DNA of 40,096 nucleotides from an uncultured Eggerthellaceae bacterium (GTDB lineage Bacteria; Actinomycetota; Coriobacteriia; Coriobacteriales; Eggerthellaceae). The stretch lies in assembly GCA_965147515.1 (NCBI GenBank), contig CBCTKQ010000001.1, positions 1-40,096 on the forward strand. Reading direction: 5' to 3'. The notes beneath the pieces are model-generated. The model searched no databases, was not told where the DNA came from, and saw only the letters and a program-made list of their open reading frames with translations. Shown here one piece after another: positions 8,466 through 30,784 of this stretch. The position numbers and the translations under genes were made by a program. Numbering within the stretch: the first letter of the stretch is position 1; the number at the start of each line of letters is the position of its first letter.

Positions 8466-8612
8466 GCCTCGCCGCCCTGTCTGCACCCTGCACTTCCGCC
8501 TCAGCGTCTGTCGCGGGCTTTCTCTTCGTGTGCCCGCCAGCGTAACGTTGGGGTGCCGAAGGTTCCCGCGCGCATCCGGAAGCGCCTTGCAGGCCGTAGA
8601 ATCGTGGGCATC

Positions 8613-9953: not shown

Positions 9954-9989
9954 TTTGCGCCACGTTCGGCGGCTATGATAGGATGATTC

Positions 9990-10014
9990 CTGCTGCGAAC
10001 AGCAGCACCTTTTT
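9990..10014 (+). terminator. putative intrinsic terminator after the MFS gene
   Basis: CTGCTG-CGAA-CAGCAG hairpin followed by CACC and TTTTT. Confidence 0.45.
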
Positions 10015-10020
10015 GCGAGT

Positions 10021-10097
<77 letters not shown>

Positions 10098-11249: not shown

Positions 11250-12749
11250 ATGGCTGAAGAAATCGTTGAAACGCTCGAGGTAGAGGACGACCCCATCGAG
11301 GTGCGCAAGGCCAAGCGCGCGGCGCTTCTCGAGGCCGGGCGCGACCCTTACGGGCATGCGTTCAAGCGCAGCGACTTCGTGGCCGACCTCGAAGCCGAAT
11401 ATGGCTCGCTCGAAGACGGCGAGACCACCGAGGACGAGGTCAGCCTCGCCGGACGCATAATGGCGCGCCGCGTGCAGGGAAAGATCGCCTTCCTCGAGCT
11501 TATGGACCCGACCGGCACCATCCAGCTGTTCTGCCGCATCAACGCCTTGGGCGAGGAAGCCTTCGACGAGATCAAGGACATCGACGTGGGCGACTGGCTT
11601 GGCGTGCACGGCGCCGTCATGCGCACGCGCCGCGGCCAGCTTTCCGTGGCCGTCGACGCCTTCGAGCTGCTGTCGAAGTCGATCCGCCCGCTGCCCGAGA
11701 AGTTCCACGGGCTGACCGACAAGGAGACGCGCTACCGCCAGCGCTACGTGGACATGGTGATGAACCCCGAGGTCCGCGAAGTGTTCCTGAAGCGCTCCGC
11801 CATAGTGTCGGCCATCCGCGCCTACATGGAGGAGCAGGGCTTCATGGAGGTCGAGACGCCGTTCCTCAACGGCATCCTGGGCGGCGCCAACGCGAAGCCG
11901 TTCGTCACGCACTTCAACGCGCTGGACCGCGACTACTACCTGCGCATCGCCACCGAGCTTCCGCTTAAGCGCCTGCTGGTGGGCGGGTTCGAGAAGGTGT
12001 TCGAGCTGGGGCGCCAGTTCCGCAACGAAGGAATGGACCACACGCACAACCCCGAGTTCACCACCATGGAGGCCTACGAGGCGTTCAGCGACCTCGAAGG
12101 CATGATGCGCCTGACGCGCGGGTGCTTCCAGGCGGCCGCGCAGGCAGCATGTGGAACGCTGCAGGTGGAATACCAGGGCAACGTCATCGACCTGTCGGGC
12201 GACTGGCGCGTGGCTTCCATGATCGAATTGGCAACCGAGGGCGCGGGCGAACCCATCGACTTCGGGCGCACCCGCGACGAGCTTGTGGCAATCCTCGAGA
12301 AGCACGGCGGCCATGCCGACGACGCCTGGGGGAAGGGCAAGCTGATAGCCGAGGTGTTCGAGGCCGTGGCGGAAGAGAAGCTGGTGCAGCCCACGTTCGT
12401 GGTGGACCACCCGCTCGAGGTCAGCCCCCTGGCCAAGAAGAAGGTCGACAACCCCGAACTCACCGAGCGATTCGAACTGTTCATCTGCGGGCACGAGTAC
12501 GCCAACGCCTTCACCGAGCTGAACGACCCCATAGACCAGGCCGAGCGCTTCATGGCGCAGGTGGCCGCCAAGGACATGGGGGACGACGAGGCCATGGGCT
12601 ACGACGCCGACTACATCCGCGCGCTGGAGTACGGCATGCCGCCGGCGGGCGGCGTGGGCATCGGCATCGACCGCATGGTCATGCTGCTCACCGGCAGCGA
12701 GTCCATACGCGACGTGCTGCTGTTCCCGCACATGAGAGACGAGGCATAG
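11250..12749 (+). CDS. lysS: lysine--tRNA ligase, class II
   Basis: ATG at 11250 follows AGGAGA. OB-fold N-domain (GRIMxxRxxGKxxFxxLxD), class II motifs (FRNEGxDxTHNPEFT, GxGIGIDRxxMLLT) and a C-terminal FPHMRDEA. Confidence 0.93.
   Translation: MAEEIVETLEVEDDPIEVRKAKRAALLEAGRDPYGHAFKRSDFVADLEAEYGSLEDGETTEDEVSLAGRIMARRVQGKIAFLELMDPTGTIQLFCRINALGEEAFDEIKDIDVGDWLGVHGAVMRTRRGQLSVAVDAFELLSKSIRPLPEKFHGLTDKETRYRQRYVDMVMNPEVREVFLKRSAIVSAIRAYMEEQGFMEVETPFLNGILGGANAKPFVTHFNALDRDYYLRIATELPLKRLLVGGFEKVFELGRQFRNEGMDHTHNPEFTTMEAYEAFSDLEGMMRLTRGCFQAAAQAACGTLQVEYQGNVIDLSGDWRVASMIELATEGAGEPIDFGRTRDELVAILEKHGGHADDAWGKGKLIAEVFEAVAEEKLVQPTFVVDHPLEVSPLAKKKVDNPELTERFELFICGHEYANAFTELNDPIDQAERFMAQVAAKDMGDDEAMGYDADYIRALEYGMPPAGGVGIGIDRMVMLLTGSESIRDVLLFPHMRDEA
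12711..12749 (+). repeat. att core copy A (functional 3' end of lysS)
   Basis: The 39 nt GACGTGCTGCTGTTCCCGCACATGAGAGACGAGGCATAG recur with 29/39 identity at 25417-25455. The terminal 21 nt recur with 17/21 identity at 30671-30691. Confidence 0.7.
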
Positions 12750-12797
12750 AAATATAGCCTCTGAACTGGGAACTTATTTTCCGAAAAGTGCCAAAAC

Positions 12798-12828
12798 CTT
12801 ACGGCTTACGGCATATTTACGGCAAAAG
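12798..12828 (+). repeat. TTACGG direct-repeat array (candidate integrase arm sites), left arm of island 1
   Basis: Sequence CTTACGG CTTACGG CATAT TTACGG CAAAAG. An inverted CCTTACG lies at 12841-12847. The array is homologous to 25503-25523. Confidence 0.6.
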
Positions 12829-12907
12829 TCTTCAGAGATGCGTAAGGCTTTCGTAACGCACTGATACATAGTCGGCCGCGACCGACAGGATGGGAGACCG
12901 TCTTTAC

Positions 12908-12941
12908 AAGACCCGTTGAGGCAACTCGGCGGGTCTTTTTT
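12908..12941 (+). terminator. strong intrinsic terminator (likely the effective lysS terminator, element-borne)
   Basis: 13-bp stem AAGACCCGTTGAG / CTCGGCGGGTCTT (2 G-U pairs), GCAA tetraloop, then T6. Confidence 0.8.
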
Positions 12942-12973
12942 GTCTCAGATCGAAATGGAAAGGAGCAGTCCTG

Positions 12974-13485
12974 ATGAAACCGAGGGTGATAGCCGTCGCC
13001 AACCAAAAGGGCGGCGTGGGCAAGACGACCACCGTGGCGAACCTCGGGGCCGCGCTCGCGAGTCGTGGCGAGAGGGTCTGCTGGTGGATGCCGATCCGCA
13101 AGGGAGCCTCACCTCGTCGCTGGGGTGGAAGAACCCCGACGAGCTGGAGGTGACGCTGGCTACCCATTTGGAAGCCGCGGCCCGCGATGTGGAGCTGCCG
13201 GTGCGAGAGGGTCTGCTGAGCCACAAAGAGGGTTTCGACCTCATGCCTGCCAACATCGAGCTAGCGGCGGTCGATGTGGAGCTCGTCACGGCGATGTGCC
13301 GCGAGGCGGCCATGGGAGAGTGGCTTTCTGGATTGAGGGACGACTACGACCGCATCCTCGTCGACTGCATGCCCTCCCTCGGGATGCTCACCGTGAACGC
13401 CTTGGCCGCAGCCGACAGCGTGCTCATTCCCGGGCAGGCGCAGTACCTGCCCGCCAAGGGGATGGGGCTTTTGATTGAGGTTTGA
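12974..13485 (+). pseudogene. parA: ParA/Soj-family ATPase, frameshifted (near 13077) and C-terminally truncated
   Basis: [35 protein letters not shown] (deviant Walker A) is in frame 2. The continuation [16 protein letters not shown]... is in frame 1. The reading frame ends at GLLIEV, about 80 aa short of a normal ParA. Confidence 0.8.
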
Positions 13486-13509
13486 CGATATAGGGCGCTC
13501 TTGTATAAT
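13482..13509 (+). promoter_or_regulatory. near-consensus sigma-70-type promoter at the parA truncation junction
   Basis: TTGACG (13482-13487), a 16-nt spacer, then TATAAT (13504-13509). The TGA stop of the parA remnant lies inside the -35 box. Confidence 0.55.
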
Positions 13510-13559
13510 TGCCTAGTTAAAATCTCCGTGGGCTTTTCCGGGCTTATGTCATCTTTTTA

Positions 13560-13592
13560 CCACGGCCTCATGTAAGGGGTCGTGGTTTTTTA
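13560..13592 (+). terminator. intrinsic terminator about 50 nt downstream of the junction promoter
   Basis: CCACGGCC / GGGTCGTGG stem followed by TTTTTTATT. Confidence 0.65.
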
Positions 13593-13639
13593 TTCAAGTT
13601 GAGCCGACGATCCGCGATAAAAAGAAAGGATTATATCGG

Positions 13640-14575
13640 ATGTTGGCAAAAACAAAGACGCAGATGGTATCCGCACTCGAAGTTTTCGCTGGCGGCGCTT
13701 GCTACGGGGCTAACGCGACGATGTATAAGCTTGCATATGCCGATGGCTTCTCGTGGCCGCAGGTTGTTGGATGCCAAATGTGGTTTGCGGTGGCTCTCTT
13801 CGGAGTTGTCGTGGTCTTTTCCTGCTTCCTGGGAAGAAACTGGGTTTCCTTAGATAAAGTCGCAGTATTGAAACTTATGGGACTCGGTGCTCTTAGCTGC
13901 ATAACTGCTATTCTCTATTGCTTTGCTATGTCACGTCTTCCTGTTGCAGTTGCTTTGACGCTTCTTTTCCAATTCACTTGGATAGGGCTAGTCATTCAAA
14001 TTATCATAACGCGCCGCCTTCCTAGGCCAACGGAGATTATTTCATGTGTCATTATCCTGGGCGGAACAGTATTGGCGAGCAATGTATATAAGGTTGGCTT
14101 GTCCGGCTTTGACCCAATCGGCCTTGTTTGTGGATTCATGTCGGCGGTGAGTTGCGCTCTGTTCGTTACCTTGTCTGGTCGAGTGCAGGCCCCCTGTTCT
14201 TCGGCGCAAAGAGGCTTTATCGTATGCTTGGGTTCTGGGGTCGCATCTTTATTCGTTTGCCCCGACTTTTTGATATCCGGTGTCATTTTTGAAGGAATCG
14301 CGCCCTACGGCTTTGTCGTCGGACTGTTCGGTATGTTATTGCCGGTGTTGCTGTTTGGGTTAGGAACTCCTAATCTGCCTGCTGGCGTTTCGACCGTACT
14401 TGCAGCGTCGGAGCTCCCTGCGGGCTTGATAGTATCCGTGGTGATGTTGGGAGACGAGATAGGCGTAATGCAATGGGCTGGTGTTATAGCAATACTTTTC
14501 GGCGTTATCGTGTCGCAATTGAGATTCGGCGGCATAGCAGCTCGTGTGGACAAAGATGCACCCTGCTATCAGTGA
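13640..14575 (+). CDS. DMT-superfamily (EamA-like) transporter
   Basis: 311 aa, 10 predicted TM in a two-repeat architecture, AAAGGA RBS. It is a paralog of the CDS at 29701-30645. Confidence 0.75.
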   Translation: MLAKTKTQMVSALEVFAGGACYGANATMYKLAYADGFSWPQVVGCQMWFAVALFGVVVVFSCFLGRNWVSLDKVAVLKLMGLGALSCITAILYCFAMSRLPVAVALTLLFQFTWIGLVIQIIITRRLPRPTEIISCVIILGGTVLASNVYKVGLSGFDPIGLVCGFMSAVSCALFVTLSGRVQAPCSSAQRGFIVCLGSGVASLFVCPDFLISGVIFEGIAPYGFVVGLFGMLLPVLLFGLGTPNLPAGVSTVLAASELPAGLIVSVVMLGDEIGVMQWAGVIAILFGVIVSQLRFGGIAARVDKDAPCYQ

Positions 14576-14612
14576 CCATCTTGCGCGGCGAAACAAACGA
14601 TGAGGTGTGAAC

Positions 14613-16100
14613 TCATTGCGTCTCGTCGCGCAGGTCAGCCGTTCTTTGCTCTCCGTATAACTCAAATAAATCGAACATTTCCATTTTCGAATGAATGCCC
14701 ATCTTACGATATATGTTGTAAATGTGCGTCTTAACTGTTCCAGGAGCAACGTAGAGCTTCTCTGATATATATGATGCGGTCATACCGCTTAGCAAAAGCG
14801 GTAAGACCTCCATTTCGCGATTGGACAAACCCCATTCCCCTCCGAATGCCTCTATCATCTCGCTTTTGATTGCGCTCGCTTCTTCCAGTACATTCACGCT
14901 GGATGGACGGTCGCCCGTCTGCACTTCCTCGATGCTTTTCCTTTCGTCGGTCGCAGATCGAGCGGCAAATACCTCCTTCTCCGTAAAGACCAGGGTTGAA
15001 GCAACGACAATGAGCGGAACGCTGATCGCAACATCGAAGAGAAGGGGATCTACGACAGGAGACATAAGGTGCGTAAACAATCCCAACAGCCATCCGCATA
15101 GCATGCCCAGCGTTATCGCGGCACGCGCAACACCGAGAACGCTGACGGCCGATAGCCCCTGTAGCTTGACCTTGTTGCACAAATCGTTCAGGGCAAGTAT
15201 CTCAAACACAAGGTATGCAGATATGACCATAAAGCAGGCGAACGTCGTTGAAGATGCATTACCGAAAAGCAATGCAGCGACCCCGATGCTCATCGCGGAT
15301 GGAACAAGGCGATAGAGCTGATAGACTGACTGAATGTCCTTGAGGCGGACAAAGGCTATCGCAAGTATCACGCCAACGACAAGACAGCACGGGGCTTCAA
15401 CAAAGGGCCCAAGGAGATAGCTTTCAATGCCGTTCGAGACTATCGTGCTCGTCAGCATGCCGAATACGAGCGCGTACAGGCAAAGAGCGACGCTTATCCT
15501 GCCGATATACGGGAACAGCCTGAATGGAAACGGGTCCTTTGAGACATACTCGAAGATGTTGCTGGATGTATTGACTCGGTAATGCTTATACGAGAGATAG
15601 AAGGTTGCGCAAGAGAAAACCGGCAATACGAGGGCGCATCCGAGAGCCAGCGGACGGGTAAGCGCGCTGACGAAGATGCTCACCGCCGCACCGAACGCAT
15701 AAGACGATGCAACGTACAGAGCAACCTCCCCAATCCTGTTGTTGCCGAAAAAGCACATCCAGAGAATGAACATGCATGCATCAGTTGCACCCAGTAAAGC
15801 CGCAGTGACGAGCGACAGCCCCTGTATTCCCGAGATCGCCAATGCTGAGGACAGCAAGCCACATGCAAGCGACATGGTGAACAAGGTTTTCCTGATAAAG
15901 CCGTTCGTCATCCGTTTGGCGCCCAAGAGTATGACGGCTATGAAGACGAGGCGAAAGAAGAGTTCGGTGGACTCGAAGGACAAACCCATCACAGTCTCTT
16001 GCTCTAGAAGCAAGGATGGGCTGACGCATACCAAAAACAGCCATGCCCAATAAAAACCGAACCCCAACATTCTTAGGGGAAACAAATCATGTTTATTCAT
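14613..16100 (-). CDS. membrane-embedded LuxR-family transcriptional regulator (polytopic N-terminal sensor plus C-terminal GerE/LuxR HTH)
   Basis: 495 aa. About 380 aa carry 10-12 hydrophobic helices. The C-terminus has LSNREMEVLPLLLSGMTASYISEKLYVAPGTVKTHIYNIYRKMG. It is divergent from the molybdoenzyme operon. Confidence 0.85.
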   Translation of the reverse strand: MNKHDLFPLRMLGFGFYWAWLFLVCVSPSLLLEQETVMGLSFESTELFFRLVFIAVILLGAKRMTNGFIRKTLFTMSLACGLLSSALAISGIQGLSLVTAALLGATDACMFILWMCFFGNNRIGEVALYVASSYAFGAAVSIFVSALTRPLALGCALVLPVFSCATFYLSYKHYRVNTSSNIFEYVSKDPFPFRLFPYIGRISVALCLYALVFGMLTSTIVSNGIESYLLGPFVEAPCCLVVGVILAIAFVRLKDIQSVYQLYRLVPSAMSIGVAALLFGNASSTTFACFMVISAYLVFEILALNDLCNKVKLQGLSAVSVLGVARAAITLGMLCGWLLGLFTHLMSPVVDPLLFDVAISVPLIVVASTLVFTEKEVFAARSATDERKSIEEVQTGDRPSSVNVLEEASAIKSEMIEAFGGEWGLSNREMEVLPLLLSGMTASYISEKLYVAPGTVKTHIYNIYRKMGIHSKMEMFDLFELYGEQRTADLRDETQ

Positions 16101-16313
16101 AACCAGTCCTCATACGAGTAAAACAATGTGTTTAATACTATCTACCGAATGCGTATTTCTGCATAAACCATTAGTCATAAATCCTCAATCTACCTCAAAG
16201 TTTATATCCTACGGCCTCCTCAAAGGATAGCTTTTCCTCTTAAGGTCGGTATAGGTGTGTCCGCCATGATGCACCTATCCGGACAATCCCACAATGAGAG
16301 GAGAGATAAGCTT

Positions 16314-18959
16314 ATGGGATCCGGAAAGGAAACAAGGGGCGATACCGTTTATCGAGGAATAGCTTGGTCGGCTTTTGCATGCAGCGCCAATACTTCATGC
16401 GTTGATGTGAAGGACGACAAGATCCTGCGCATTCGCCCGCTGCATTACGATGATGTTGCGAGTGTCGAAGAGCGCAAGCCGTGGAAGATTGAAGCGCGCG
16501 GGAAGGTATTCGAGCCGGGCGAAAAGACGATGATTCCACCTCTGTCCATCAGCTACAAGAAGCGAATCTATTCTAAGAATCGCATTTTGCATCCGATGAA
16601 GCGCGTCGACTGGGATCCGAACGGAGAGAGAAATCCACAAAACCGAGGGAAATCGAAGTACGTCCAGATTAGCTGGGATGAAGCCACCCAGATCATCGCA
16701 GATGAGATCAAGCGCGTTCACGATGCGTACGGGCCTCTCGCAATCCTCTGCCAGGCGGACGGGCATGGAGAGACCAAAGTCGTCCATGCGCCCCATGGTG
16801 CCCAGGCGAACCTTCTCGATCTGTGTGGCGGCTATACGCTACAGTCTCGGCAGCCCGATAGTTGGGAAGGCTGGTATTGGGGCGGCAAGCACATATGGGG
16901 CAACGAGCCCGTTGGCATGCAGGTTAACCAGCGCAATCTTTTCAAGGATGTTGCCGAACACGGCGATGCGGTGCTGTACTGGGGGTGCGATCTCGAGACG
17001 ACGCCGTGGGGTTGGGGCGGCGAGCAGCCGAGCCGTATGGCGTATTTCCTAGAAGAGGTCGGTCTCCGTTCGTTCTTCATATCGCCTGACCTCAACTACA
17101 CTGGGGCTGCACATAAGGGCAAGTGGATTCCCGTCCTGCCGAATACCGATGCCGCCTTGCAGCTTGCTATCGCCTATGTGTGGCTGACCGAAGGCACGTA
17201 CTACAAGGAATATATCGAAAGCCACACCATAGGCTTCGACTGGTTCGAGCGCTATGTCCTTGGCGGCGAGGATGGCATTCCCAAGACACCGAAGTGGGCA
17301 GAGGGCAAGTGCGGCGTGCCTAGCTACACGATCAAAGCATTCGCTCGTTATTGGGCAAAGCATGCCGTCTCCATCGCCCACGCTGACGGCGGCGGAATGA
17401 TCCGCTCCCCCTTCTCGGCCGAGCCTGCTCGTCTTGAGGTTGTCCTTATGGCCATGCAGGGCATCGGACGGCCGGGAGTAGGACAGCTCCATCTGATTGA
17501 GTTCGGGCAGTTCGGCTTTGACGAGTGGAACCCGATGCCCCGCTCTGAAAAGTACTTCGAGGTGCCTGGCGCATATCACGGCTGGATGGAACTCCTTGAC
17601 GGGCATCCTTCCTTCATCCCAAAAACTATGATTCCTCAGGCTCTCATGTTGGAAGAGGGGGAGAAGCTGCATTGGCACGGTCACGGTGTTTGCACTGCTC
17701 CTCGGCTTGACCAATTCATGCCGTTTGAGTGGCCCCTCGACGGCGAGCCTTATATCCATATGATCATCTCTGATTCGCCCAGCTGGATGACGTGCTGGAA
17801 TTGCGGCAACGCCATGCAGGACGCTCTGCGGAATCCGCGAATCGAGACATACGTCATGCAGCATCCTTGGTTTGAGAACGATGCCACGTTTGCCGATCTC
17901 ATCCTTCCTGTAAGTACCATGTTCGAGCAGAAAGACATCGCTGTCGATAACTGGAGCGGTCAGTTCAACATGATGTACATCCAAGACGAATGCATCAAAC
18001 CTCTTGGAGAATCGAAGTCTGACTGGGAGTGCGCCATTGAAGTCGCTCGGAAACTCGAGAAGTTCGGTGGTGTCTATGAGAATCTCGTTGAGCGCTATAC
18101 GCAAGGCAAGGACGTCGATGCCTGGATCAAGGCTGGCTTTGAGAGTGCGAATGTCGAGCCAGAGATGATGACGTACGAAGAATTCGCTGAGAAGAAGATG
18201 TGCCTTGCCCCTACCGCCGAGGGGTGGGAGGACGACCCCGTGGCGCTGTCCAAATGGTATGAAGATTGGTCTCAGCAGCCCATGCAGACTCCGACGGGGA
18301 AGATAGAGATTTACTCGACCGGTCTTGCCAAGTACTTCCCCGATGACAAGACGCGCCCTGTCGTACCTCACTGGATTGAAGAGTCCGAAGACCTCAAAGA
18401 GCGCCTTTCCTGTGAGCGCGCTCAGGATTACCCCTTCCTCATGATTACAAACCACCCTCGTTGGCGCGTTCACTCTGAGCATGACGATGTGACCTGGCTA
18501 CGGGAGATCGAGACGTGCAAGGTCAAAGGTCCCGACGGGTACATGTACGAGCCTGTGTGGCTGAACCCAATCGATGCCGGAAAGCTGGGCATCGCCAATG
18601 GTGACGTCGTGAGCGTTTTTAACGAGCGCGGTTCTGTGCTCGGTGGCGCAATCGTCACCGAGCGCACCATGCCCGGCACGGTATATCAAGACCACGGTGC
18701 GCGCATCGACGCCATTGTCCGTGGAACCGGAGGTCTTGATCGCGGAGGTGCCAACAACCTCATCTGCCCCTTGGCCACCGCATCGGAAAATACGCTGTCT
18801 GAGGCAACCAACGGCTTCCTTGTGAACGTTAGGAAGGTCGATGTGGCCGCCCTTGCCGATGAGTATCCGGAGGCGTTCGATCGAGAGTATGACCCTGCTG
18901 ATGGCCTGAGGGTCTCAAGCTGGCTGGTTGACCAGCCGACCGAGGCCGATCAAAGATAG
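16314..18959 (+). CDS. bis-MGD molybdoenzyme large subunit, pyrogallol-phloroglucinol transhydroxylase (AthL)-like, cytoplasmic
   Basis: ATG at 16314 follows GAGAGGAGAG. PWKIEARGKVFEPGEKT...ILHPMKRVDWDPNGERNPQNRG...ISWDEATQIIADEIKRVHDAYGP closely parallels my recollection of the Pelobacter acidigallici transhydroxylase alpha N-terminus. There is no CxxCxxxC FS0 motif and no twin-arginine signal peptide. Confidence 0.8.
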   Translation: MGSGKETRGDTVYRGIAWSAFACSANTSCVDVKDDKILRIRPLHYDDVASVEERKPWKIEARGKVFEPGEKTMIPPLSISYKKRIYSKNRILHPMKRVDWDPNGERNPQNRGKSKYVQISWDEATQIIADEIKRVHDAYGPLAILCQADGHGETKVVHAPHGAQANLLDLCGGYTLQSRQPDSWEGWYWGGKHIWGNEPVGMQVNQRNLFKDVAEHGDAVLYWGCDLETTPWGWGGEQPSRMAYFLEEVGLRSFFISPDLNYTGAAHKGKWIPVLPNTDAALQLAIAYVWLTEGTYYKEYIESHTIGFDWFERYVLGGEDGIPKTPKWAEGKCGVPSYTIKAFARYWAKHAVSIAHADGGGMIRSPFSAEPARLEVVLMAMQGIGRPGVGQLHLIEFGQFGFDEWNPMPRSEKYFEVPGAYHGWMELLDGHPSFIPKTMIPQALMLEEGEKLHWHGHGVCTAPRLDQFMPFEWPLDGEPYIHMIISDSPSWMTCWNCGNAMQDALRNPRIETYVMQHPWFENDATFADLILPVSTMFEQKDIAVDNWSGQFNMMYIQDECIKPLGESKSDWECAIEVARKLEKFGGVYENLVERYTQGKDVDAWIKAGFESANVEPEMMTYEEFAEKKMCLAPTAEGWEDDPVALSKWYEDWSQQPMQTPTGKIEIYSTGLAKYFPDDKTRPVVPHWIEESEDLKERLSCERAQDYPFLMITNHPRWRVHSEHDDVTWLREIETCKVKGPDGYMYEPVWLNPIDAGKLGIANGDVVSVFNERGSVLGGAIVTERTMPGTVYQDHGARIDAIVRGTGGLDRGGANNLICPLATASENTLSEATNGFLVNVRKVDVAALADEYPEAFDREYDPADGLRVSSWLVDQPTEADQR

Positions 18960-18970
18960 GAGCACAAGAA

Positions 18971-19795
18971 ATGAAGGTTTTTGTTTACGACCTAGATAAA
19001 TGCAATGGCTGTCATAATTGCCAGATCGCCTGCAAAGACGAACATGTGGACAACGAATGGCTCCCATACGCAAAGCCCCAGCCTGATACCGGTCATTTTT
19101 GGTGCAAGGTTGAAGAGGAAGTTTGCGGTAAAACGCCCCACGTGCGCGTCAACTATCTTCCCACGCAATGCAACCATTGCGACGAGGCTCCATGCATGAA
19201 GAGCAGCGATGCGCTTTACCGGCGCGACGATGGTCTGGTGATCCTTGACCCTGAGAAGTCCAAAGGCCAAAAGGAGATAGTTGATTCGTGCCCCTATGGT
19301 GCCATCTACTGGAATGAAGAGCTGCAAATCCCCCAGAAGTGCACGGGCTGCGCCCATCTTCTCGATGACGGGTGGGAGGCTCCTCGGTGCGTAGACGCTT
19401 GCTGCACGGGCGCGCTCAGGTTCGGGGAAGAGGCGGACTTTGCTGACGAGCTGAAGGACGCCGTCGTCTTGCGGCCTGAGCTGGGCACCTCGCCGCGCGT
19501 CTATTACTTGAACAAACCGAAGCGCTTTGTTGCAGCCACCGTTGTAGACATCGACGCGGACGAGGTTGTCGAGGGTGCAGAGGTTCTTTTGCAGCGGACG
19601 AGCGACGATGCGGTCGTGCTGACGGGCCAAACCGACGAGTTTGGAGATGTCTGGCTTGAGAACATCGACCCTGACTCATACAGACTGTGGATGAAAAAGG
19701 ATGGATATCTTGATCAATCGATCGACGTCGATCTCACCGCAAAGGATCAAGCATACCCGGAATTGCAGTTCTTCAAGGCCCCTACCCGAGCCTGA
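18971..19795 (+). CDS. iron-sulfur small subunit (BthL-like): 3x[4Fe-4S] ferredoxin domain plus C-terminal beta-sandwich domain
   Basis: Cys groups are CNGCHNCQIAC, CNHCDEAPC, SCPYGAIYW and CTGCAHLLDDGWEAPRCVDAC. The last ~90 aa resemble a carboxypeptidase-regulatory/Ig-like fold (TGQTDEFGDVWLENIDPDSYRL). The 274-aa length matches the transhydroxylase beta subunit architecture. Confidence 0.8.
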   Translation: MKVFVYDLDKCNGCHNCQIACKDEHVDNEWLPYAKPQPDTGHFWCKVEEEVCGKTPHVRVNYLPTQCNHCDEAPCMKSSDALYRRDDGLVILDPEKSKGQKEIVDSCPYGAIYWNEELQIPQKCTGCAHLLDDGWEAPRCVDACCTGALRFGEEADFADELKDAVVLRPELGTSPRVYYLNKPKRFVAATVVDIDADEVVEGAEVLLQRTSDDAVVLTGQTDEFGDVWLENIDPDSYRLWMKKDGYLDQSIDVDLTAKDQAYPELQFFKAPTRA

Positions 19796-19830
19796 CTCAC
19801 TCAAGACGCGCAAGCACATGATTTTGGGAG

Positions 19831-21360
19831 ATGACAATGGATACAACTCAAGATATAAAACAAACACCCAAGAAGGAAAAGCTGGAACGCGGTAACGGCA
19901 TGAACCAGTTGCCAAAGACGCCTCATCTTTTGGCGTTTGGTCTGCAGCATGCACTCATCATACTCTTTCAAACACTTCCTGCTCCTTTGCTCATTTCGGC
20001 AGGCGTTGGATTAGATGCCGTGCAAACGGCATTGCTGGTGGCGTCTGCGTTGTTTGTAAGCGGCATCTGCACCTTCATCCAAAGCTTTGGGCTCGGTCCG
20101 ATAGGCGCAAAGATTCCGATGGTCATGGTCGGCAGCTTCGTCTTCATCGCGCCGGCTGCGCTGATCATTCCACAATCTGGGTTCGGCGGGTATATGGGAG
20201 CCTGCATCGTTGCGGCAATCGTATGCGGAGTGATATTCGTCTTGTTCTCAGGATGGCTCAAGGTTATCTTTCCTTCTTTCATTTCTGGAGCGGTTCTGCT
20301 CGTCTTGGGCACGGGACTCATTGGCAACGCGCTTAACAACTGCGCTGGCGGGGCGGGCGTCGAAAATTATGGCGACCCCATGTTCCTTGCTCTTGCAGGC
20401 ATCACATTCCTGATAACACTTGTACTTAGCGTCTTCGGTAAAGGATTCATCCAGGGTGCGGCTCCTCTTATCGCATTGGTCATTGGCTTCATAATCAGCA
20501 TCTGTCTTGGAATGGTCGACTTCTCCTCCGTTGAAGAGGCTGCTTGGTTCGGCGTGCCTCAGCCTCTTGCTTGGGGAATATCGTTCCCGATAGATGCCTG
20601 CCTTGTTATGACCCTCGTCGCCGTCTGTGGCGTAGTCGAGATTCTCGGCACGACGTCCGCTACCGTGGATACGGCGGCAAGCAGGCCCGCAACCCTTGAG
20701 GAGACGCGAAAAACGGTTCTAACGCAGGCCGTTACAAGCGTCTTCGCAGGTATCTTCAACGCCGTCCCGACCATTTCCGGCTCTGCGAATATCGGCCTTA
20801 TGGGCATCACCAAAGTGTTCTCGCGTTATGCGGTCGCATGCGCAGGCGTGATCGTTCTCGTCATGGGCCTTTGCCCGAAGTTTGCGGCTGTGTTCTCCGT
20901 CATTCCCAATCCGGTGTTCGGTGGAGCCGTATTGATGATGTTCGGCACTATTCTTGTAAACGGAATGAAAATCATCATGGAAAGCGAGCAGACGGGACGC
21001 ACTCAAACGATCCTTGCCGTGGCGCTTGCAGTCGGAATCGGATTCAACTCGTTCCCTGACGCTTTGGCGCAGTTCCCGTTCTGGGTTTCCACGATGCTGT
21101 GCGGCGTACCTGGTACCGCCTTCGTTGCGGTCATCCTCAACGTGATCCTTCCTGGCCGCAACCTCAAAAAGCAGTCGCTCGAAGATCAGGGTGAGAAGCC
21201 GCGCGAGGACGAGCGCAAGGCCCTTGGCAACGAGACGACCGAAGAGAACCTCATGGGCGTCGAGGTGGATGTCAGCAATCTTGAGGCGCCCAAGGCGGGT
21301 GAGACCGTTTCACCCATCGACTTCGAGGCGGCAAAACGCCCTGACAATGAGAAGCGTTGA
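19831..21360 (+). CDS. NCS2/NAT-family permease (paralog 1) with a long acidic C-terminal tail
   Basis: FGLQHxL start, 14-TM-like pattern. The signature region is SGSANIGLMGITK. The start could be 19831, 19837 or 19900. Confidence 0.8.
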   Translation: MTMDTTQDIKQTPKKEKLERGNGMNQLPKTPHLLAFGLQHALIILFQTLPAPLLISAGVGLDAVQTALLVASALFVSGICTFIQSFGLGPIGAKIPMVMVGSFVFIAPAALIIPQSGFGGYMGACIVAAIVCGVIFVLFSGWLKVIFPSFISGAVLLVLGTGLIGNALNNCAGGAGVENYGDPMFLALAGITFLITLVLSVFGKGFIQGAAPLIALVIGFIISICLGMVDFSSVEEAAWFGVPQPLAWGISFPIDACLVMTLVAVCGVVEILGTTSATVDTAASRPATLEETRKTVLTQAVTSVFAGIFNAVPTISGSANIGLMGITKVFSRYAVACAGVIVLVMGLCPKFAAVFSVIPNPVFGGAVLMMFGTILVNGMKIIMESEQTGRTQTILAVALAVGIGFNSFPDALAQFPFWVSTMLCGVPGTAFVAVILNVILPGRNLKKQSLEDQGEKPREDERKALGNETTEENLMGVEVDVSNLEAPKAGETVSPIDFEAAKRPDNEKR

Positions 21361-21398
21361 TCGACGAATTGCCCACAAGAGCGCGGAGAGGTGCACGC

Positions 21399-22778
21399 AT
21401 GAAAGCTGATGGATACAAGATAAACGACAAGCCGCCGGTCAAAGAGCTGATTCCTTTTGGTATCCAGCACTCGCTCCTGATAGCATTCCAAGCCCTGCCA
21501 TACCCTCTTTTGGTTGCGGCGGGGCTTGGGTTCGACCCGGTTCAGACTGCGATCTTGGTGTCGTGTGCCTTCTTCGTTTCCGGGTTGTCTACTATTTTGC
21601 AGACGATGGGAATCGGGCCCGTTGGCGGCAAGGTGCCCATAGCAATGACCGTGAGCGTCGTGTTCGTTTCGCCAGCGCTCCTTATCGCTCCACAAGTCGG
21701 ATACGCTGGCTATGTCGGGGCATGCCTGGTCGGAAGCCTCATATGCGGTCTCGTTTTCTTTGCCTTCTCTGACAAGCTGAGAGTGATTTTTCCTCCGTTC
21801 GTCTCTGGGTCGGTCGTCTTCGTTTTAGGTGCGACCTTGATCGGTGTGGCGCTTGGATACTGTGCTGGCGGCAGCGGAAGCGTTGATTATGGGGACCCGT
21901 CGAACTTTATCTTATCCGGCGTGACCTTGGTTGCCGTGCTGGCATTCCATGTTCTTGGGAAAGGCTTTCTGCATGGCGCAGCACCCTTGCTGGGACTCTG
22001 CATCGGTTTCATCGTGGCAGTGCTCATGGGAAAGGTTGATTTCACTCCTGTGGCAGAGGCAGCTTGGTTCGGCTTTCCTCAGCCGCTCTACTGGGGAATC
22101 GAGTTTCCCTTGGATGCATGTCTCACGATCGGGTTTCTAGCGATCTGCGGCGTAGCAGAATTGCTCGGCGATGTTTCGGCCACGACGAAGATCGCAGCAA
22201 ACAGGATGCCGACAAAAAGAGAGACGCGCGGCGTTATCTTCACTCAGGCGATAACAAGCGCCATTTCCGGGGTCTTCAATTGTGGACCTACCATATCTGC
22301 GAGCGCAGATGTCGGGCTTCTCGGTTTCACGAAGGTTTGCAGCCGATATGTTGTCGCTGTTGCGGGCTCCATCATGGTGCTCGCGGGCATCTGCCCGAAG
22401 ATAAGCACTCTTTGTTCCGTGATCCCCACAGCCGTCTTTGGCGGAGCGGTCCTCCTTATGTTCGGCGTTATCCTCGTCAATGGCATTAAGATCATCATGG
22501 AATCGAGGCCGGATGAGAGGGTAGCGACCATCGTTGCCGTTTCCACGGCGATAGGGCTTGGGTTTAACGCATTCCCTGACGCCTTGGCGCAGTTTCCATT
22601 TTGGGTGTCGATGTTTCTGTGTGGCATACCGGGAACGGCTTTTTCTGCCGTGATCTTGAACCTGCTTCTTCCTGGCAGAAAAGGCTCGATGCAGTGGGAA
22701 GACGGTATCGAAGACATTGCAGGGCAGATTGCTTCTGTAGATGAAAGTCTTGTTGGAACGGATAGTCACGCTAAATAG
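21399..22778 (+). CDS. NCS2/NAT-family permease (paralog 2)
   Basis: ATG at 21399 follows GGAGAGG. It is collinear with paralog 1 (FGIQHSLL, GPVGGKVPIAM, ALAQFPFWVS). The signature region is SASADVGLLGFTK. Confidence 0.8.
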   Translation: MKADGYKINDKPPVKELIPFGIQHSLLIAFQALPYPLLVAAGLGFDPVQTAILVSCAFFVSGLSTILQTMGIGPVGGKVPIAMTVSVVFVSPALLIAPQVGYAGYVGACLVGSLICGLVFFAFSDKLRVIFPPFVSGSVVFVLGATLIGVALGYCAGGSGSVDYGDPSNFILSGVTLVAVLAFHVLGKGFLHGAAPLLGLCIGFIVAVLMGKVDFTPVAEAAWFGFPQPLYWGIEFPLDACLTIGFLAICGVAELLGDVSATTKIAANRMPTKRETRGVIFTQAITSAISGVFNCGPTISASADVGLLGFTKVCSRYVVAVAGSIMVLAGICPKISTLCSVIPTAVFGGAVLLMFGVILVNGIKIIMESRPDERVATIVAVSTAIGLGFNAFPDALAQFPFWVSMFLCGIPGTAFSAVILNLLLPGRKGSMQWEDGIEDIAGQIASVDESLVGTDSHAK

Positions 22779-22822
22779 CTGCTTTATGTGAATCAAATCT
22801 TGGTTCTGCCTTCTTTCTCTGT

Positions 22823-22866
22823 GGCGACGTCTCGCTTCTACCCCCTAGGAGACGTCGCCTTTCTTT
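22823..22866 (+). terminator. intrinsic terminator closing the molybdoenzyme/permease operon
   Basis: 11-bp perfect stem GGCGACGTCTC / GAGACGTCGCC, 15-nt loop, then TTTCTTT. Confidence 0.7.
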
Positions 22867-22942
22867 GCTCTTGAGCGTCATCTACACCGGCGCATTAGGC
22901 TTGGGCCACTAAGAAAATCGATCCTATTCGCTCATTACTGAT

Positions 22943-23163
22943 ATGACTCGGATTTATGGAAAACGGACTGAAGTTAAAGGCTCTGCGGTAAATTACTTCG
23001 TGTCTATTCGAGTTGATAAGCTAAATCAGATTGAGATTCGCGTTACGGAAGAGATATTTAATGCTCTGGATGAGCTTCAGAGCGAACTTTGGAGACTCGA
23101 AAGGAAAGAGTCTAGACGCTGTGCTCATTTTGAAAGTCTTAAAGACTGTCACATACCCCATGC
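22943..23163 (+). pseudogene. N-terminal fragment of a conjugative-element sigma-70-region-4-like regulator
   Basis: IEIRVTEEIFNALDELQSELWRLERKESRRCAHFESLKD fits the (V/I)xVxxE(I/V)(Y/F)...W(R/K)xE(R/K)...SL(D/E) N-terminal pattern of ICE/transposon-associated sigma-like proteins. The rest of the 193-aa track ORF is antisense to abiEii and is not credible. Confidence 0.35.
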
Positions 23164-23655
23164 TTATCGTGCCATGAGCCCTGAAGACGTTTGCGAAGGG
23201 TATCGCATGGCGCCTGGTACGAGCGAGTCGCCCGTGGTGATGTCGATCTTCACGATGGTGCGGATCTTGCCGAGCCTCACACCGATGTGCGCCCTGAATC
23301 CCGGGTACTCGTCTTCCTCTCTGATGTCCTCGATGTGGTCGGGCGAGTACTCGATCCCGTCGTCAGCCGCCATGGCGCATACATCTTCTATCATCGACTT
23401 GACGGCATCCTCGCTCATCGGCATTCCGACAACGGTGGCATCCATGTCCATGGTGGTGCGCTGGGCGATGCCCGCCATGGATGCGATGAGCATGCCTCCT
23501 TTGAGGACCACCTTATCGACGTAGGCGCTTTTCGCAATCCGTGCGAGGAAGCGCTCCAACAGGTGCATCTGGAGGACCGCCTGCGGGGATACTCCCGTCT
23601 TCTTGGCGAGGTTCTTCGCACGGTCCCTCAGGCTGGCATCGTTCATGGGGCTCAT
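23164..23655 (-). pseudogene. abiEii: AbiEii/AbiGii-family nucleotidyltransferase toxin, C-terminally truncated
   Basis: The N-terminal ~150 aa carry the NTase motif LKGGMLIASMAG...TTMDMDAT. Full-length members are roughly twice as long. There is a 4-nt ATGA overlap with the upstream abiEi. Confidence 0.7.
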
Positions 23656-24257
23656 AGCAGGACCTCCGCGTATCTTTGCAGGTCGCGCTCCACTCCGAGC
23701 GCCCGGGCGTACTCGGAGAGCTTCGCGAGGTCCTTGTCAGGTAACCTGAAGTATCCCTCGATCGCGCTTTTGAGTATCTGTATATCTATATCGTTCTTGC
23801 TCCTCGCGATTATCGCGTCGCAGACGCACCTCTCTTTGTCGTAGGCCCTCACGGGTGCGCCGGACATGCCCGTTATGTACTCGATCCCGATGGGGTAGGC
23901 ACCGGCGTTGGCGCGATAGACGATGGCGGATGGGTGCGCCGCCGCGAAGCTTGTCACGCTATAGGCGCTCGGGAACGTCACGTCGAGGGCGAGGGGGAAG
24001 CGATCGGAGAGCCCGTGCAGGTAGAGGGCGCTCGCGTGGGAGATGACGGCCCGCCCCCAGCGCGACGTGACGGTCTCGAAGTCATCGACCAGCACGTCGG
24101 GGAGCGCGTACACCCCGCGGGTCTCGCGGTTGATCGCCCCGCTTTCCGCAAGGCTTGCGATGAGCCCCGCGCTGAAGCCGGCGGCTCTTAGCTCGCTCTG
24201 CCTTGCGATGCCCCCCTTCGATTTGAGGAGTTCTATCAGCTCGTCAGTGCGCGTCAC
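23652..24257 (-). CDS. abiEi: AbiEi-family type IV antitoxin / transcriptional regulator
   Basis: GTG at 24257 lies 5 nt after GAGGAGAA. It has an N-terminal winged HTH (IARQSELRAAGFSAGLIASL...G.I......GVY) and a C-terminal AbiEi_4-like domain. Confidence 0.75.
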   Translation of the reverse strand: MTRTDELIELLKSKGGIARQSELRAAGFSAGLIASLAESGAINRETRGVYALPDVLVDDFETVTSRWGRAVISHASALYLHGLSDRFPLALDVTFPSAYSVTSFAAAHPSAIVYRANAGAYPIGIEYITGMSGAPVRAYDKERCVCDAIIARSKNDIDIQILKSAIEGYFRLPDKDLAKLSEYARALGVERDLQRYAEVLL

Positions 24258-24618
24258 CCGTTCTCCTCTATAGACGTCTATGCAGAAATATATCAATATT
24301 CTAGCACGAACGTCTATTGAGCGAATGTTCGATTGAAAATTTCAGCCGAGACCTTCCCTCAGCGCCCGCTCCTAGTCCGTCCATATAGGGAGGCAGGCGC
24401 CTCCCCGCGAACCTTGAGAATCCCATACCCGCCGCACCCTGGCAAGGCCAAGAGCGTGCCACGCGATGAGGGGCCTCGTGGGCCGGTGGGAGCCGCCGTC
24501 AAGGTGGCGCTGCGCGGAGGGGATGCCCCGTTCCGGACGAACTGGCTCGGGGCGGCTCCTCCCGCACATAGGAGATCGGAAAACTCGGGGAGAGACTCTG
24601 TATGGAAGTCCGCTTTGG

Positions 24619-25260
24619 GAGAAGCCCTACCTGACCCTTGAAGAGGCAGCGGCTTTCTTCCATATCGGCATCCATCGGCTGAGGGAATTGTCGAATGCGG
24701 ATGACTGCGACTTCGTTGTGTGGATTGGGAGCAAGCGCCTCTTCAAGCAGATTGATGTGAACCACACGCTTGTGTACTACAACACCGGAGGATACGGCTG
24801 CAAAGGCGGCTCGATGTATGCGATCAATGACACCAAGACGCCAGCGGGAATGCGGATCCTCCCGATGCTCGATGATGTGGAGGACTTGCTCGACGAGGAG
24901 ATCGAGCGCCAGCGAGCCGATCATATCCGCTCGCGTATGGTGATAGACGGCTACCGGGACTTCGTGTTCCTCAACCGATTCGGTGATGTGCTGAACGAGG
25001 GAACCCTCAACAAGGCTCTGAAACGAATCATACGCGACTGCAACTTCGAGCAGATGGAGAAGGGCGGCGATCTGCTCCTGCCGAATTTCAGCTGCCATTG
25101 GCTGCGCCACACGTTCTCGACAAGGATGGTGGAAAGCGGCCTCCACGACAAGGCGCGAATGTATCTGATGGGACACGAGAGCCTTGACACCACTGATACG
25201 ATTTACACCGATGCGCAGCCCGAGTTTCTCAGGCGCGAGATGCTGAAGATGGCCGCCTAG
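24619..25260 (+). pseudogene. in-frame fusion of an excisionase-type HTH N-terminus to the catalytic C-terminal domain of a tyrosine recombinase
   Basis: EKPYLTLEEAAAFFHIGIHRLRELSNADDCDFVVWIGSKRLFKQ is Xis/MerR-like HTH. It is followed directly by IDVNHTL...TKTPAGMRILPM...HWLRHTF...LMGHESLDTTDTIYTD, which carries the R, HxxR, H and Y catalytic residues. No arm-binding or core-binding domain and no clear start codon are present. Confidence 0.7.
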
Positions 25261-25282
25261 CAAGACGATCTCGCTGATTGAG

Positions 25283-25310
25283 CTTACGGCAACTTACGGT
25301 AGGTTTACGG
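25283..25310 (+). repeat. TTACGG direct-repeat array, right arm of island 1
   Basis: CTTACGG, CTTACGG and TTTACGG start at 25283, 25293 and 25304 (10-11 nt phasing). A further TTTACGG lies at 25386-25392. Confidence 0.6.
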
Positions 25311-25416
25311 TAAAATGGCTCAAGTTGCGTGACATTTTCAGAAGGGTCGTGTAACGGTGCAAGAAGAAAGCCCAGTTCAAGAAGGTTTACGGAAGGACGG
25401 CGAAGGTCAACAGAAC

Positions 25417-25455
25417 GACGTCCAACTTATCCCGCACATGCGCGAAGAGGCATAA
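25417..25455 (+). repeat. att core copy B (displaced or element-borne lysS 3' end remnant)
   Basis: It translates as DVQLIPHMREEA* versus lysS DVLLFPHMRDEA*. Identity to copy A is 29/39 nt. About 90 nt downstream is also homologous to the sequence downstream of copy A. Confidence 0.7.
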
Positions 25456-25502
25456 ATAAACACCCTATTAACTGGTAACTCTTTTTCGCGGAAACCGCAA
25501 AT

Positions 25503-25523
25503 CTTACGGATTTACGGCAAAAG
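25503..25523 (+). repeat. TTACGG repeat pair, left arm of island 2
   Basis: CTTACGG A TTTACGG CAAAAG. It shares the TTTACGGCAAAAG ending with 12816-12828. Confidence 0.6.
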
Positions 25524-25640
25524 CCTTTATGGTTGGGGTTATAGGACGCTCATTCCGTCATATAACCCCAGGGCATCTTGTAAAGCCGCATATTGCGATT
25601 GGAAAAGTGCAGCTTGCCCAAACGGTCGATGTTATTCCGG

Positions 25641-25709
25641 CCAAATGACCGAATTTATGTCGTCCAAATGACCGATGTTATTGTTGCCAAATGACCGAAG
25701 TTATTCTAA
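25641..25709 (+). repeat. three tandem 23-bp direct repeats upstream of the ATPase gene (iteron/operator-like)
   Basis: CCAAATGACCGA is exact at 25641, 25664 and 25687, each followed by (A/T)(T/G)TTAT. A partial copy GGTCGATGTTATT lies at 25624-25636. Confidence 0.8.
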
Positions 25710-29644: not shown

Positions 29645-29674
29645 GATGATGCCCGCTTTGATGCGGGCATCATC
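29645..29674 (+). other. perfect 12-bp hairpin (terminator-like, no U-tract)
   Basis: GATGATGCCCGC-TTTGAT-GCGGGCATCATC lies between the membrane protein and DMT genes. Confidence 0.6.
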
Positions 29675-29700
29675 ATGTACAAGGACGAGGGGATCGAACA

Positions 29701-30645: not shown

Positions 30646-30670
30646 AGGTTAGGCCTCAAGCCCATTACTT

Positions 30671-30691: not shown

Positions 30692-30784
30692 GCATCGCGT
30701 TCCAGCCTCGTTCTTGTTGACCAACCTCCACACGCGGTCAAGCCGCTAAGGGTATACAATGCTTATGCTTTTGTTTTATGAAGC

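Follow-up and report, generated by a model that had tools for sequence, protein, structure and literature searches.

Catechol dehydroxylases of Gordonibacter are cytoplasmic two-subunit molybdoenzymes with an adjacent membrane LuxR-type sensor and transporter (PMC7028382, PMC11887054), and a polytopic LuxR build, in which a C-terminal GerE helix-turn-helix (HTH) comes after 10–12 transmembrane (TM) segments, has been described for substrate-sensing regulators of Eggerthellaceae molybdoenzymes (PMC11585353; 10.1101/2025.01.17.632430). The urate reductase XdhD, encoded in clusters of E. coli and C. difficile that include the uric-acid NCS2 permease UacT, is a molybdoenzyme that converts urate to 2,8-dioxopurine (PMC12507026). 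Here we analyze a six-gene module in a 40,096-nucleotide (nt) stretch of DNA from an uncultured Eggerthellaceae bacterium (contig CBCTKQ010000001.1, positions 1–40,096; the window hereafter). The module encodes a two-subunit enzyme related to the pyrogallol transhydroxylase AthL/BthL of Pelobacter acidigallici, a LuxR-type membrane regulator, two paralogous NCS2 permeases (NCS2a and NCS2b) and an EamA/DMT transporter (Table 1). On the combined evidence of enzyme family, permease motifs and gene neighborhood, we judge, with slightly better than even confidence, that it forms a substrate-induced cytoplasmic molybdoenzyme unit acting on a uracil- or xanthine-type N-heteroaromatic base with oxo or hydroxy substituents.

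A predicted AthL/BthL-type molybdoenzyme

Sequence comparison assigns the α and β subunits to the AthL/BthL-type branch of the dimethyl sulfoxide (DMSO) reductase family. Among solved structures, the best match of α is the large subunit of pyrogallol hydroxytransferase (4v4c_A; 411.7 bits, E 4.6e-122, residues 29–843), compared with 229 bits for DMSO reductase and 33.9 bits for acetylene hydratase, and β matches the small subunit BthL (4v4c_B) with 200 bits (E 3.6e-58). The bisC-family model TIGR00509 gives 343 bits with α. The Pfam domains of α are AhtL-like_1st (PF21423, 44 bits against a cut-off of 27), Molybdopterin and Molydop_binding, and the same search returned no match to Molybdop_Fe4S4, the domain of the FS0 cluster. 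The β subunit combines Fer4_11 with CarboxypepD_reg and contains 12 Cys residues spaced for three [4Fe-4S] clusters. A twin-arginine motif is absent from the N-terminus of α, MGSGKETRGDTVYRG, and neither subunit has a predicted TM segment; both are thus predicted to be cytoplasmic. An earlier reading of the window, made from its letters and open reading frames (ORFs) and referred to below as the original prediction, had described α as AthL-like without a twin-arginine signal or FS0, and β as carrying three [4Fe-4S] motifs and a β-sandwich. Both descriptions agree with these matches, and the comparison it proposed between AthL/BthL and the catechol-dehydroxylase type comes out on the AthL side.

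The predicted active site was compared through an AthL sequence rebuilt from the structure alignment, whose numbering returned His144, Arg153, Asp174, Ser175, Trp354, Tyr404 and Tyr560. AthL, the query and 119 relatives were aligned with MAFFT, and HMMER pairwise alignments provided a second view. Ser175 of AthL, the Mo ligand with Asp174 and His144 as its neighbors, aligns with Ser183 of α in the motif QPDSWEGW, while Asp174 and His144 align with Asp182 and His151. Five residues of this region (His144, Asp174, Ser175, Trp176 and Glu177 in AthL numbering, encompassing the PDSWEGW motif) are invariant across the query and all 119 relatives. A Ser is therefore retained at the ligand position, as in the transhydroxylase. 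The stretch that the original prediction had singled out for the Mo ligand, ILCQADGHGETKVVH (ILCQADGHGE), was misplaced: it aligns with the His144 region, and the ligand position lies in QPDSWEGW.

The surroundings of this core differ from AthL. In AthL, Arg153 and Tyr404 are the residues that bind pyrogallol. Arg153 corresponds to Pro160 of α in both alignments, Tyr152 to Ala and Trp354 to Met. Tyr404 falls on Pro409 in the HMMER alignment and on a gap in the MAFFT alignment; α has Tyr414 and Tyr421 nearby, so that the loss of this Tyr is only tentative. Given an overall identity to AthL of ~37%, the change of Arg153 to Pro and the lack of an aligned Tyr at Tyr404, α is, as judged from these alignments, not an orthologue of the pyrogallol enzyme. 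Five α positions (R14, R54, G269, F397 and F415) are specific to the clade linked to NCS2 genes, described below.

A second molybdoenzyme of the window (36140–38605) offers an internal contrast, with a Molybdop_Fe4S4 (FS0) domain and 296.9 bits against acetylene hydratase (2e7z). Set against the 34 bits and missing FS0 of α, it shows that α falls outside the catechol dehydroxylases as these have been described (PMC7028382, PMC11887054). The gene of the acetylene-hydratase-like enzyme adjoins a divergent MFS gene (34269–35606), and 34269–38605 is probably a Gordonibacter-type catechol dehydroxylase locus.

Paired NCS2 genes follow one clade of the enzyme family

The α family is very large, with more than 5,600 matches at E ≤1e-20. 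Orthologues of 72–95% identity occur on gut metagenome contigs (a 299-member cluster), in Gordonibacter pamelaeae, in a mouse-gut metagenome-assembled genome (MAG) and in other MAGs. Raoultibacter massiliensis and R. timonensis have orthologues within the same range that are known from the protein alone, not from the gene neighborhood. The scan of genome contigs placed orthologues in at least three species, and missed the named G. pamelaeae and Raoultibacter orthologues. The sequence collection lists the exact α protein of G. pamelaeae (P0150) in 313 blocks, and in this species the module has a fixed context, msrAB-LuxR-alpha-beta-NCS2-NCS2-trxB-prfA.

Neighborhoods were compared with NCS2 presence judged within up to 10 kb on each side of a locus, and all locus counts are lower bounds. 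Two NCS2 genes lie directly after β in every listed locus with an α of at least 66% identity and downstream sequence (L001–L008, L012–L014, L101–L105 and L185–L188); the contig of one further locus, L092, terminates within the first NCS2 gene. These modules occur in at least five different flanking contexts. A neighbor-joining tree of 121 α sequences contains two subclades, each monophyletic (100/100 bootstrap) and joined in a single clade (99/100). Subclade I (α 72–95% identical) has two atypical permeases with SAN/SAD motifs, and subclade II (66–67% identical) has the same LuxR-alpha-beta-NCS2-NCS2 layout with two uracil-permease-like NCS2 proteins.

Beyond this clade, tblastn detected no NCS2 in any of the ~150 paralog loci listed (α ≤60% identity, genomes and metagenomes), with the window NCS2 proteins as queries throughout and the subclade II proteins as queries in the metagenome set only. 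The 59 ORFs just downstream of β in paralog loci comprise 19 DASS/CitMHS anion symporters and 11 MFS proteins, with no NCS2 among them. Because the paralogs carry DASS or MFS and never NCS2, the transporter family tracks the enzyme clade. The survey of gene neighborhoods that the original prediction had called for thus reveals its α-β-NCS2-NCS2 pairing as conserved and specific to one clade.

The literature searched describes no characterized member of the NCS2-linked α clade, no characterized enzyme with such a neighborhood, and nothing that links AthL-like enzymes to NCS2 carriers or nucleobases. The original prediction had named as counter-evidence a tight grouping of α with an already characterized, permease-linked enzyme; this was looked for in the same literature and did not appear. 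The components of the module are of known kinds; new are the way in which they are combined, the class of atypical permease and the kind of substrate implied.

Downstream of the subclade II module, L006–L008 carry a full tgt gene. This is a housekeeping Tgt (448 bits) that we regard as a hitchhiker, and the idea of a link to queuine or 7-deazapurines was dropped. In L004 (7620–8375) and L005 (8580–9335), only a tgt fragment of 251 amino acids (aa) follows the module, which suggests that the module moved together with part of the neighboring tgt. A URO-D/MtaA-like gene after the subclade II permeases scored only 41 bits and is confined to one lineage. In the wider family, tandem arrays of three to five AthL-like α genes with interspersed β genes within ~20 kb are present in L065, L070 and L079–L081; these belong to Dehalococcoidia, Chloroflexia and Actinomycetes MAGs and represent a large AthL-like expansion outside the gut.

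The permeases depart from known specificity motifs

NCS2a and NCS2b match Xan_ur_permease (PF00860) with 226 and 230 bits, and a hydropathy scan gives 11–13 segments for this family of ~14 TM segments. Their best NCBIfam model is the pbuX xanthine permease (322 and 335 bits), with both scores below the cut-off of 414. The nucleobase/ascorbate transporter (NAT) signature of TM10, [Q/E/P]-N-x-G-x4-T-[R/K/G], is matched by neither permease, since NCS2a has A-N-I-G-L-M-G-I-T-K and NCS2b has A-D-V-G-L-L-G-F-T-K at this site. The full motifs compared are SGSANIGLMGITK in NCS2a and SASADVGLLGFTK in NCS2b versus YGENIGVMAITR in UraA, FAQNNGVIALTR in UapA and SSSPNIGVLGITK in SVCT1. The TM10 motifs, like the TM8 motifs VEILGT of NCS2a and AELLGD of NCS2b, are kept in the orthologues.

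The subclade II permeases belong to another NCS2 subfamily, with 25–29% identity to those of the window, 321–367 bits against PRK10720, and Glu-Asn motifs. Identity within the pair is 53% in subclade I and 41% in subclade II; as each pair is closer within itself than between subclades, the two-permease layout arose twice. That two NCS2 subfamilies were recruited as separately duplicated pairs argues that the system needs carriers of the nucleobase type, and that it needs two. One locus, L012, has a third NCS2 with a Gln-Asn (UapA-type) motif.

The subfamily with the SANIG motif is small, and its next relatives, 40–45% identical, are found in human-gut contigs. In L097–L099 (6546–10756), such a permease is flanked by a DHO_dh-type reductase and an 8-oxoguanine-deaminase-like amidohydrolase (427 bits) in a compact cluster that also contains LacI; in L100 (5904–10833), its flanks are a corrinoid protein with an MtmB-like methyltransferase on one side and again an 8-oxoguanine-deaminase-like amidohydrolase on the other. 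Taken together, the permease motifs, the uracil-type carriers of subclade II and the deaminase neighbors of these relatives argue for N-heteroaromatic bases rather than phenols. The substrate class put forward in the original prediction is, as a proposal, better supported than before.

Operon layout, regulator and a candidate cis element

All six genes of the module are intact, at the coordinates given in the original prediction, and the gaps between α, β, NCS2a and NCS2b measure 11, 35 and at most 38 nt. The ATG of α stands 8 nt after AGGAG, which leaves the listed GTG at 16257 an unlikely start. For NCS2b, the orthologue P0207 favors the ATG at 21399, with a TTG at 21357 also open. No conserved downstream catabolic gene or dedicated redox partner was found around the module in the loci compared.

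The LuxR-type protein shows ~10 hydropathy peaks and a GerE domain at residues 425–477, and its gene is divergent from that of α. This build matches the published description (PMC11585353), as expected from the layout of membrane LuxR and molybdoenzyme that the original prediction had recognized as typical of Eggerthellaceae. A LuxR gene is found at the corresponding place in each clade I and clade II locus with upstream sequence, at identities of 44–67% and 28–31%, respectively. In two G. pamelaeae loci, L102 and L104 (8281–9737), the LuxR gene is split into a protein of 376–383 aa and a separate 68-aa ORF, compared with 487 aa in L101 and L103, which suggests inactivation of the module regulator in some strains of this species.

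The sequence TAAACC-N4-GKYRTA has a single match in the window, against 0.01 expected. It is present once, on the + strand upstream of α, in all 15 of the clade I and L106 loci (15/15) and in none of 173 other loci. The copy at 16164–16179 is a good candidate for an operator or promoter element. Consensus scans of the region for promoters and terminators produced chance-level matches only.

The EamA protein is 67% identical to the EamA at the same position in L185–L187 and 42% identical to that of L106. A DMT gene lies beside the operon only in these nearest lineages (L185–L188 and L106) and was not found next to the modules of G. pamelaeae, L013 (mouse-MAG loci) or subclade II. The convergence of the DMT gene on the regulator, noted in the original prediction, is therefore real, but this transporter accompanies the module in certain lineages only. 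Elsewhere in the window, ORF 29646–30749 has no Pfam match at E ≤0.001; in tblastn, the product of 29728–30612 is 30% identical to the L185 EamA, and by this match the ORF is taken to be a second, divergent DMT-like gene.

Proposed function and alternative explanations

Apart from a sensor, an enzyme and its carriers, the module contains nothing else. Eggerthellaceae use such a layout for single-step transformations, in which a substrate is imported and converted and the product released, and it favors a cytoplasmic molybdoenzyme that removes or moves a hydroxyl group of an oxo/hydroxy purine or pyrimidine. The reduction of urate by XdhD makes such chemistry plausible in gut anaerobes (PMC12507026). 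In the mechanism we propose, the polytopic LuxR-type sensor would turn on the four-gene operon in response to the substrate, and one NCS2 permease would bring in the oxo/hydroxy N-heteroaromatic base. The AthL/BthL-family bis-molybdopterin guanine dinucleotide (bis-MGD) enzyme would then strip or shift a ring hydroxyl at its Ser-ligated Mo center, with the three Fe-S clusters of β serving as an electron wire. The product may leave through the second NCS2 paralogue and, where present, EamA. In this strain, the unit would have entered with a 12.9-kb integrative island that inserted at the 3′ end of lysS. As the reaction, reductive dehydroxylation serving as an electron sink is the most likely, and redox-neutral hydroxyl transfer as in AthL is our second choice. 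Gene content, family, the retained Ser, His and Asp, the insertion, the NCS2 synteny of the clade and the cis element are observed; what we infer is the class of substrate, the type of reaction, the direction in which the permeases work and the response of the operon to the substrate.

A more specific version, which we regard as possible but doubtful, would make this the first enzyme of the DMSO reductase family to act on nucleobases: an AthL-like dehydroxylase or hydroxyl shuffler of oxopurines or oxopyrimidines, served by a dedicated importer and exporter, both NCS2 proteins of a novel specificity class. Such an enzyme may convert urate to xanthine or 2,8-dioxopurine, or interconvert 5-hydroxyuracil or barbiturate. 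By analogy with the mechanism that links pyrogallol and tetrahydroxybenzene, it may also isomerize xanthine and 2,8-dioxopurine in a redox-neutral reaction with urate as the co-substrate.

Several points weigh against assigning an N-heteroaromatic base and a reductive reaction to the module. We infer the substrate and the reaction from neighboring genes only. Neither a partner that would donate or accept electrons nor a downstream catabolic enzyme is encoded in the module, so the reaction may be a reduction, an oxidation or a redox-neutral transfer. The β Fe-S clusters are not known to play a catalytic role in the type enzyme. The signature motifs of NCS2a and NCS2b fall outside all three known specificity classes (Gln for xanthine/urate, Glu for uracil and Pro for ascorbate), and since their context comes closest to that of SVCT1, a non-nucleobase substrate is possible. 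The last point could be developed into a model in which ascorbate or another enediol or reductone enters through SVCT-like NCS2 proteins and is acted on in the way that AthL treats vicinal hydroxyls in pyrogallol; in its favor, NCS2a has a TM10 motif (SGSANIGLMGITKVFSR) closest in context to that of SVCT1 (SSSPNIGVLGITKVGSR). We find this very unlikely: the defining Pro is replaced by Ala, NCS2b has Asp at the Asn position, the permeases of the sister subclade are UraA-like and have the Glu-Asn motif of the uracil type, and the relatives of the SANIG permeases adjoin purine-type deaminases.

An unlikely alternative is that the enzyme is a transhydroxylase or hydroxylase of polyphenols (pyrogallol, gallate or resorcinol-type compounds) and that the NCS2 proteins carry phenolics or are unrelated salvage transporters. 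It would fit with the pyrogallol enzyme as the closest solved structure, with the conserved catalytic core of Ser, His and Asp, and with Gordonibacter and its relatives as polyphenol specialists (PMC7028382, PMC11887054). However, α is only ~37% identical to AthL, has Pro, Ala and Met in place of Arg153, Tyr152 and Trp354, and lacks an aligned Tyr at Tyr404. Paralogs that plausibly handle phenolic acids adjoin DASS or MFS genes and, in the loci listed, never NCS2, whereas the permease link of the present clade is kept across two NCS2 subfamilies. Moreover, NCS2 proteins are not known to transport phenols. A cytoplasmic reductase of N-oxides or N-hydroxy compounds, acting on oxidized nucleobases such as purine N-oxides by oxygen-atom transfer of the DMSO/trimethylamine N-oxide (TMAO)/BisC type, would call for the same kind of base-like cargo that suits NCS2 carriers, and the next-best relatives of α are indeed the DMSO/TMAO reductases (229 bits) and the bisC family (343 bits to TIGR00509), which have the Ser ligand in common with it. 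Nevertheless, α is clearly nearer to AthL than to DMSO reductase (411 versus 229 bits), and both its AthL-specific N-terminal domain and the BthL-type β are without counterpart in soluble S- or N-oxide reductases, which makes this function quite unlikely. Finally, the permeases might be ordinary nucleobase salvage genes that lie beside the enzyme by chance, and the consensus scans, which resolve neither promoters nor terminators, leave room for this. Such independence is hard to reconcile with gaps of 11–38 nt, synteny kept from 66% to 95% α identity across different flanks, movement of the block onto the island as a unit, the absence of NCS2 from every paralog locus listed, and permease motifs that are non-canonical yet conserved; we give it hardly any credence. 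A substrate-induced molybdoenzyme acting on an N-heteroaromatic base thus stays our preferred explanation.

The module lies on a strain-variable island

The window module is carried by an insertion of 12.87 kb. Relatives for the comparison were reached through GreA, which is identical to the protein on many gut metagenome contigs. In one of these, L095 (98–99% nucleotide identity), window position 12751 is joined straight to 25618, and the same empty site is seen in L093, L094 and L096 (88–94% nucleotide identity). As L095 and three more distant contigs all bridge 12751 to 25618, the intervening 12752–25617 is an insertion after lysS. The original prediction had confined itself to 13482–22866, which is too narrow. 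It had correctly recognized a block of lower GC content (0.49–0.57 over ~13.5–23 kb versus 0.62–0.67 in the flanks) and its position inside an integrative element, here supported by an empty site in a relative, imperfect terminal direct repeats of ~110 nt, and a recombinase gene near one end. The repeats contain the 3′ codons of lysS, which fits the expectation for integration into the 3′ end of a gene. The island recombinase looks decayed.

By contrast with the recombinase, the cargo is, on substitution rates, under strong purifying selection. Positions 13482–22714 are collinear with L185 at 70–76% nucleotide identity, and the L185 copy resides in a non-island context. Against L185, the rates of nonsynonymous (dN) and synonymous (dS) substitution are 0.029 and 2.2 for α (dN/dS ~0.01), 0.093 and 2.6 for β, and 0.059 and 3.1 for NCS2a. 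LuxR and EamA are far more diverged, with a dN of 0.24–0.25.

Next to the island, at least three tandem 23-nt units (CCAAATGACCGAnnTTAT...) occupy 25618–25704, at the exact right junction and upstream of a DUF4143 ATPase gene; units resembling them are also present at the empty site of L095. The window has a second strain-variable segment, 8462–10017, whose MFS gene (8553–9953) is swapped for ~90 nt in the conspecific L095 and in L093. L096 keeps part of this segment, which terminates right at tRNA-Pro(CGG) (10021–10097).

Table 1 Coordinates of the module genes and of the island features in the window
Feature	Coordinates	Strand	Description
EamA/DMT transporter	13640–14575	+	Pfam EamA; ~10 TM segments; converges on LuxR
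LuxR-type membrane regulator	14613–16100	-	~10 TM segments and C-terminal GerE HTH; divergent from the operon
Candidate cis element TAAACC-N4-GKYRTA	16164–16179	+	LuxR/α intergenic region, 150 nt upstream of the α start
α subunit, AthL-like bis-MGD molybdoenzyme	16314–18959	+	881 aa; no twin-arginine signal, no FS0; predicted Mo ligand Ser183
β subunit, BthL-like	18971–19795	+	274 aa; three [4Fe-4S] motifs and C-terminal CarboxypepD_reg-type β-sandwich
NCS2a permease	19831–21360	+	Atypical NAT motif SGSANIGLMGITK; TM8 motif VEILGT
NCS2b permease	21399–22778	+	Motif SASADVGLLGFTK; TM8 motif AELLGD; 53% identical to NCS2a
Strain-variable island	12752–25617	.	12.87 kb, immediately downstream of lysS; from the empty site in relatives and GC content
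Left imperfect direct repeat, attL-like	12710–12832	+	Includes the last lysS codons; repeat families D4 and D14; aligned with 25416–25527 and the L095 empty site
Right imperfect direct repeat, attR-like	25416–25527	+	lysS-3′-end-like sequence CCCGCACATGCGCGAAGAGGCATAA
ParA-like ATPase fragment	12916–13485	+	189 aa, TTG start; AAA_31 profile positions 34–162 of 177; inside the insertion
AbiEi-type antitoxin/regulator gene	23652–24296	-	Island cargo
Short recombinase remnant	24466–25260	+	264 aa; Tn916-Xis-like HTH and partial tyrosine-recombinase catalytic domain, profile positions 67–170 of 172

Significance and comparison with known systems

Work on molybdoenzymes of gut Coriobacteriia has centered on the catechol dehydroxylases related to acetylene hydratase, and in the literature searched an equally expanded AthL-like radiation stands without an assigned substrate. 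Genomes of Gordonibacter, Ellagibacter and Raoultibacter each have several paralogs from this radiation, which forms tandem arrays in Dehalococcoidia. The type of transporter (DASS, MFS or NCS2) shifts with the enzyme clade, and it is for the NCS2-linked clade that the class of substrate can be narrowed furthest. If this substrate is an oxopurine or oxopyrimidine, the module would carry out a reaction new to the DMSO reductase family, parallel XdhD without homology to it and include NCS2 carriers of a novel specificity class; G. pamelaeae and other common gut Eggerthellaceae would then have a previously unrecognized hand in host purine and pyrimidine pools, with a possible bearing on how urate and pyrimidines are handled in the gut. 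The proposal is readily testable, as the orthologue is common in G. pamelaeae and Gordonibacter provides an expression host (PMC11887054). If an island-free conspecific strain, so far seen only as metagenome contigs such as L095, can be isolated, it would form a natural plus/minus pair with the window strain.

Compared with AthL/BthL of P. acidigallici (4v4c), the window enzyme likewise has two predicted cytoplasmic subunits, an AhtL-type N-terminal domain without FS0, a Ser Mo ligand in the PDSWEGW motif with His144 and Asp174 kept, and a β subunit of three [4Fe-4S] motifs and a β-sandwich. It differs in its link to a LuxR sensor and a pair of NCS2 permeases and in belonging to a large uncharacterized sister radiation (50–60% identity) rather than to the AthL lineage. 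With the Gordonibacter-type catechol dehydroxylases (Dodh, Cldh/(-)-Eddh and Gp Hcdh), it shares the setting in Eggerthellaceae, a cytoplasmic bis-MGD α and a small Fe-S β, together with a membrane LuxR-type sensor and a transporter encoded alongside. Those enzymes belong to another branch of the DMSO reductase family and are accompanied by MFS carriers, whereas the window α has no FS0 and its carriers are NCS2 proteins.

XdhD serves as the precedent: with it, gut anaerobes reductively remove a ring hydroxyl or oxo group from an oxopurine in a Mo-dependent way. It is, however, a member of the xanthine-oxidase family, unrelated to the DMSO reductase family, and it works within an entire pathway of ring cleavage (YgfK/UacX, SsnA, HyuA and others), of which the window module encodes no component. 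The permeases share the Xan_ur_permease fold family with UraA, UapA/XanQ and SVCT1, and both NCS2a and NCS2b conserve the TM8 Glu and the TM10 G-x4-T-[RK]. They are set apart from all of these carriers by an Ala at the specificity position, in place of Gln, Glu or Pro, by the Asp that replaces the invariant Asn in NCS2b, and by the lack of the TM8 Asp/His in NCS2a.

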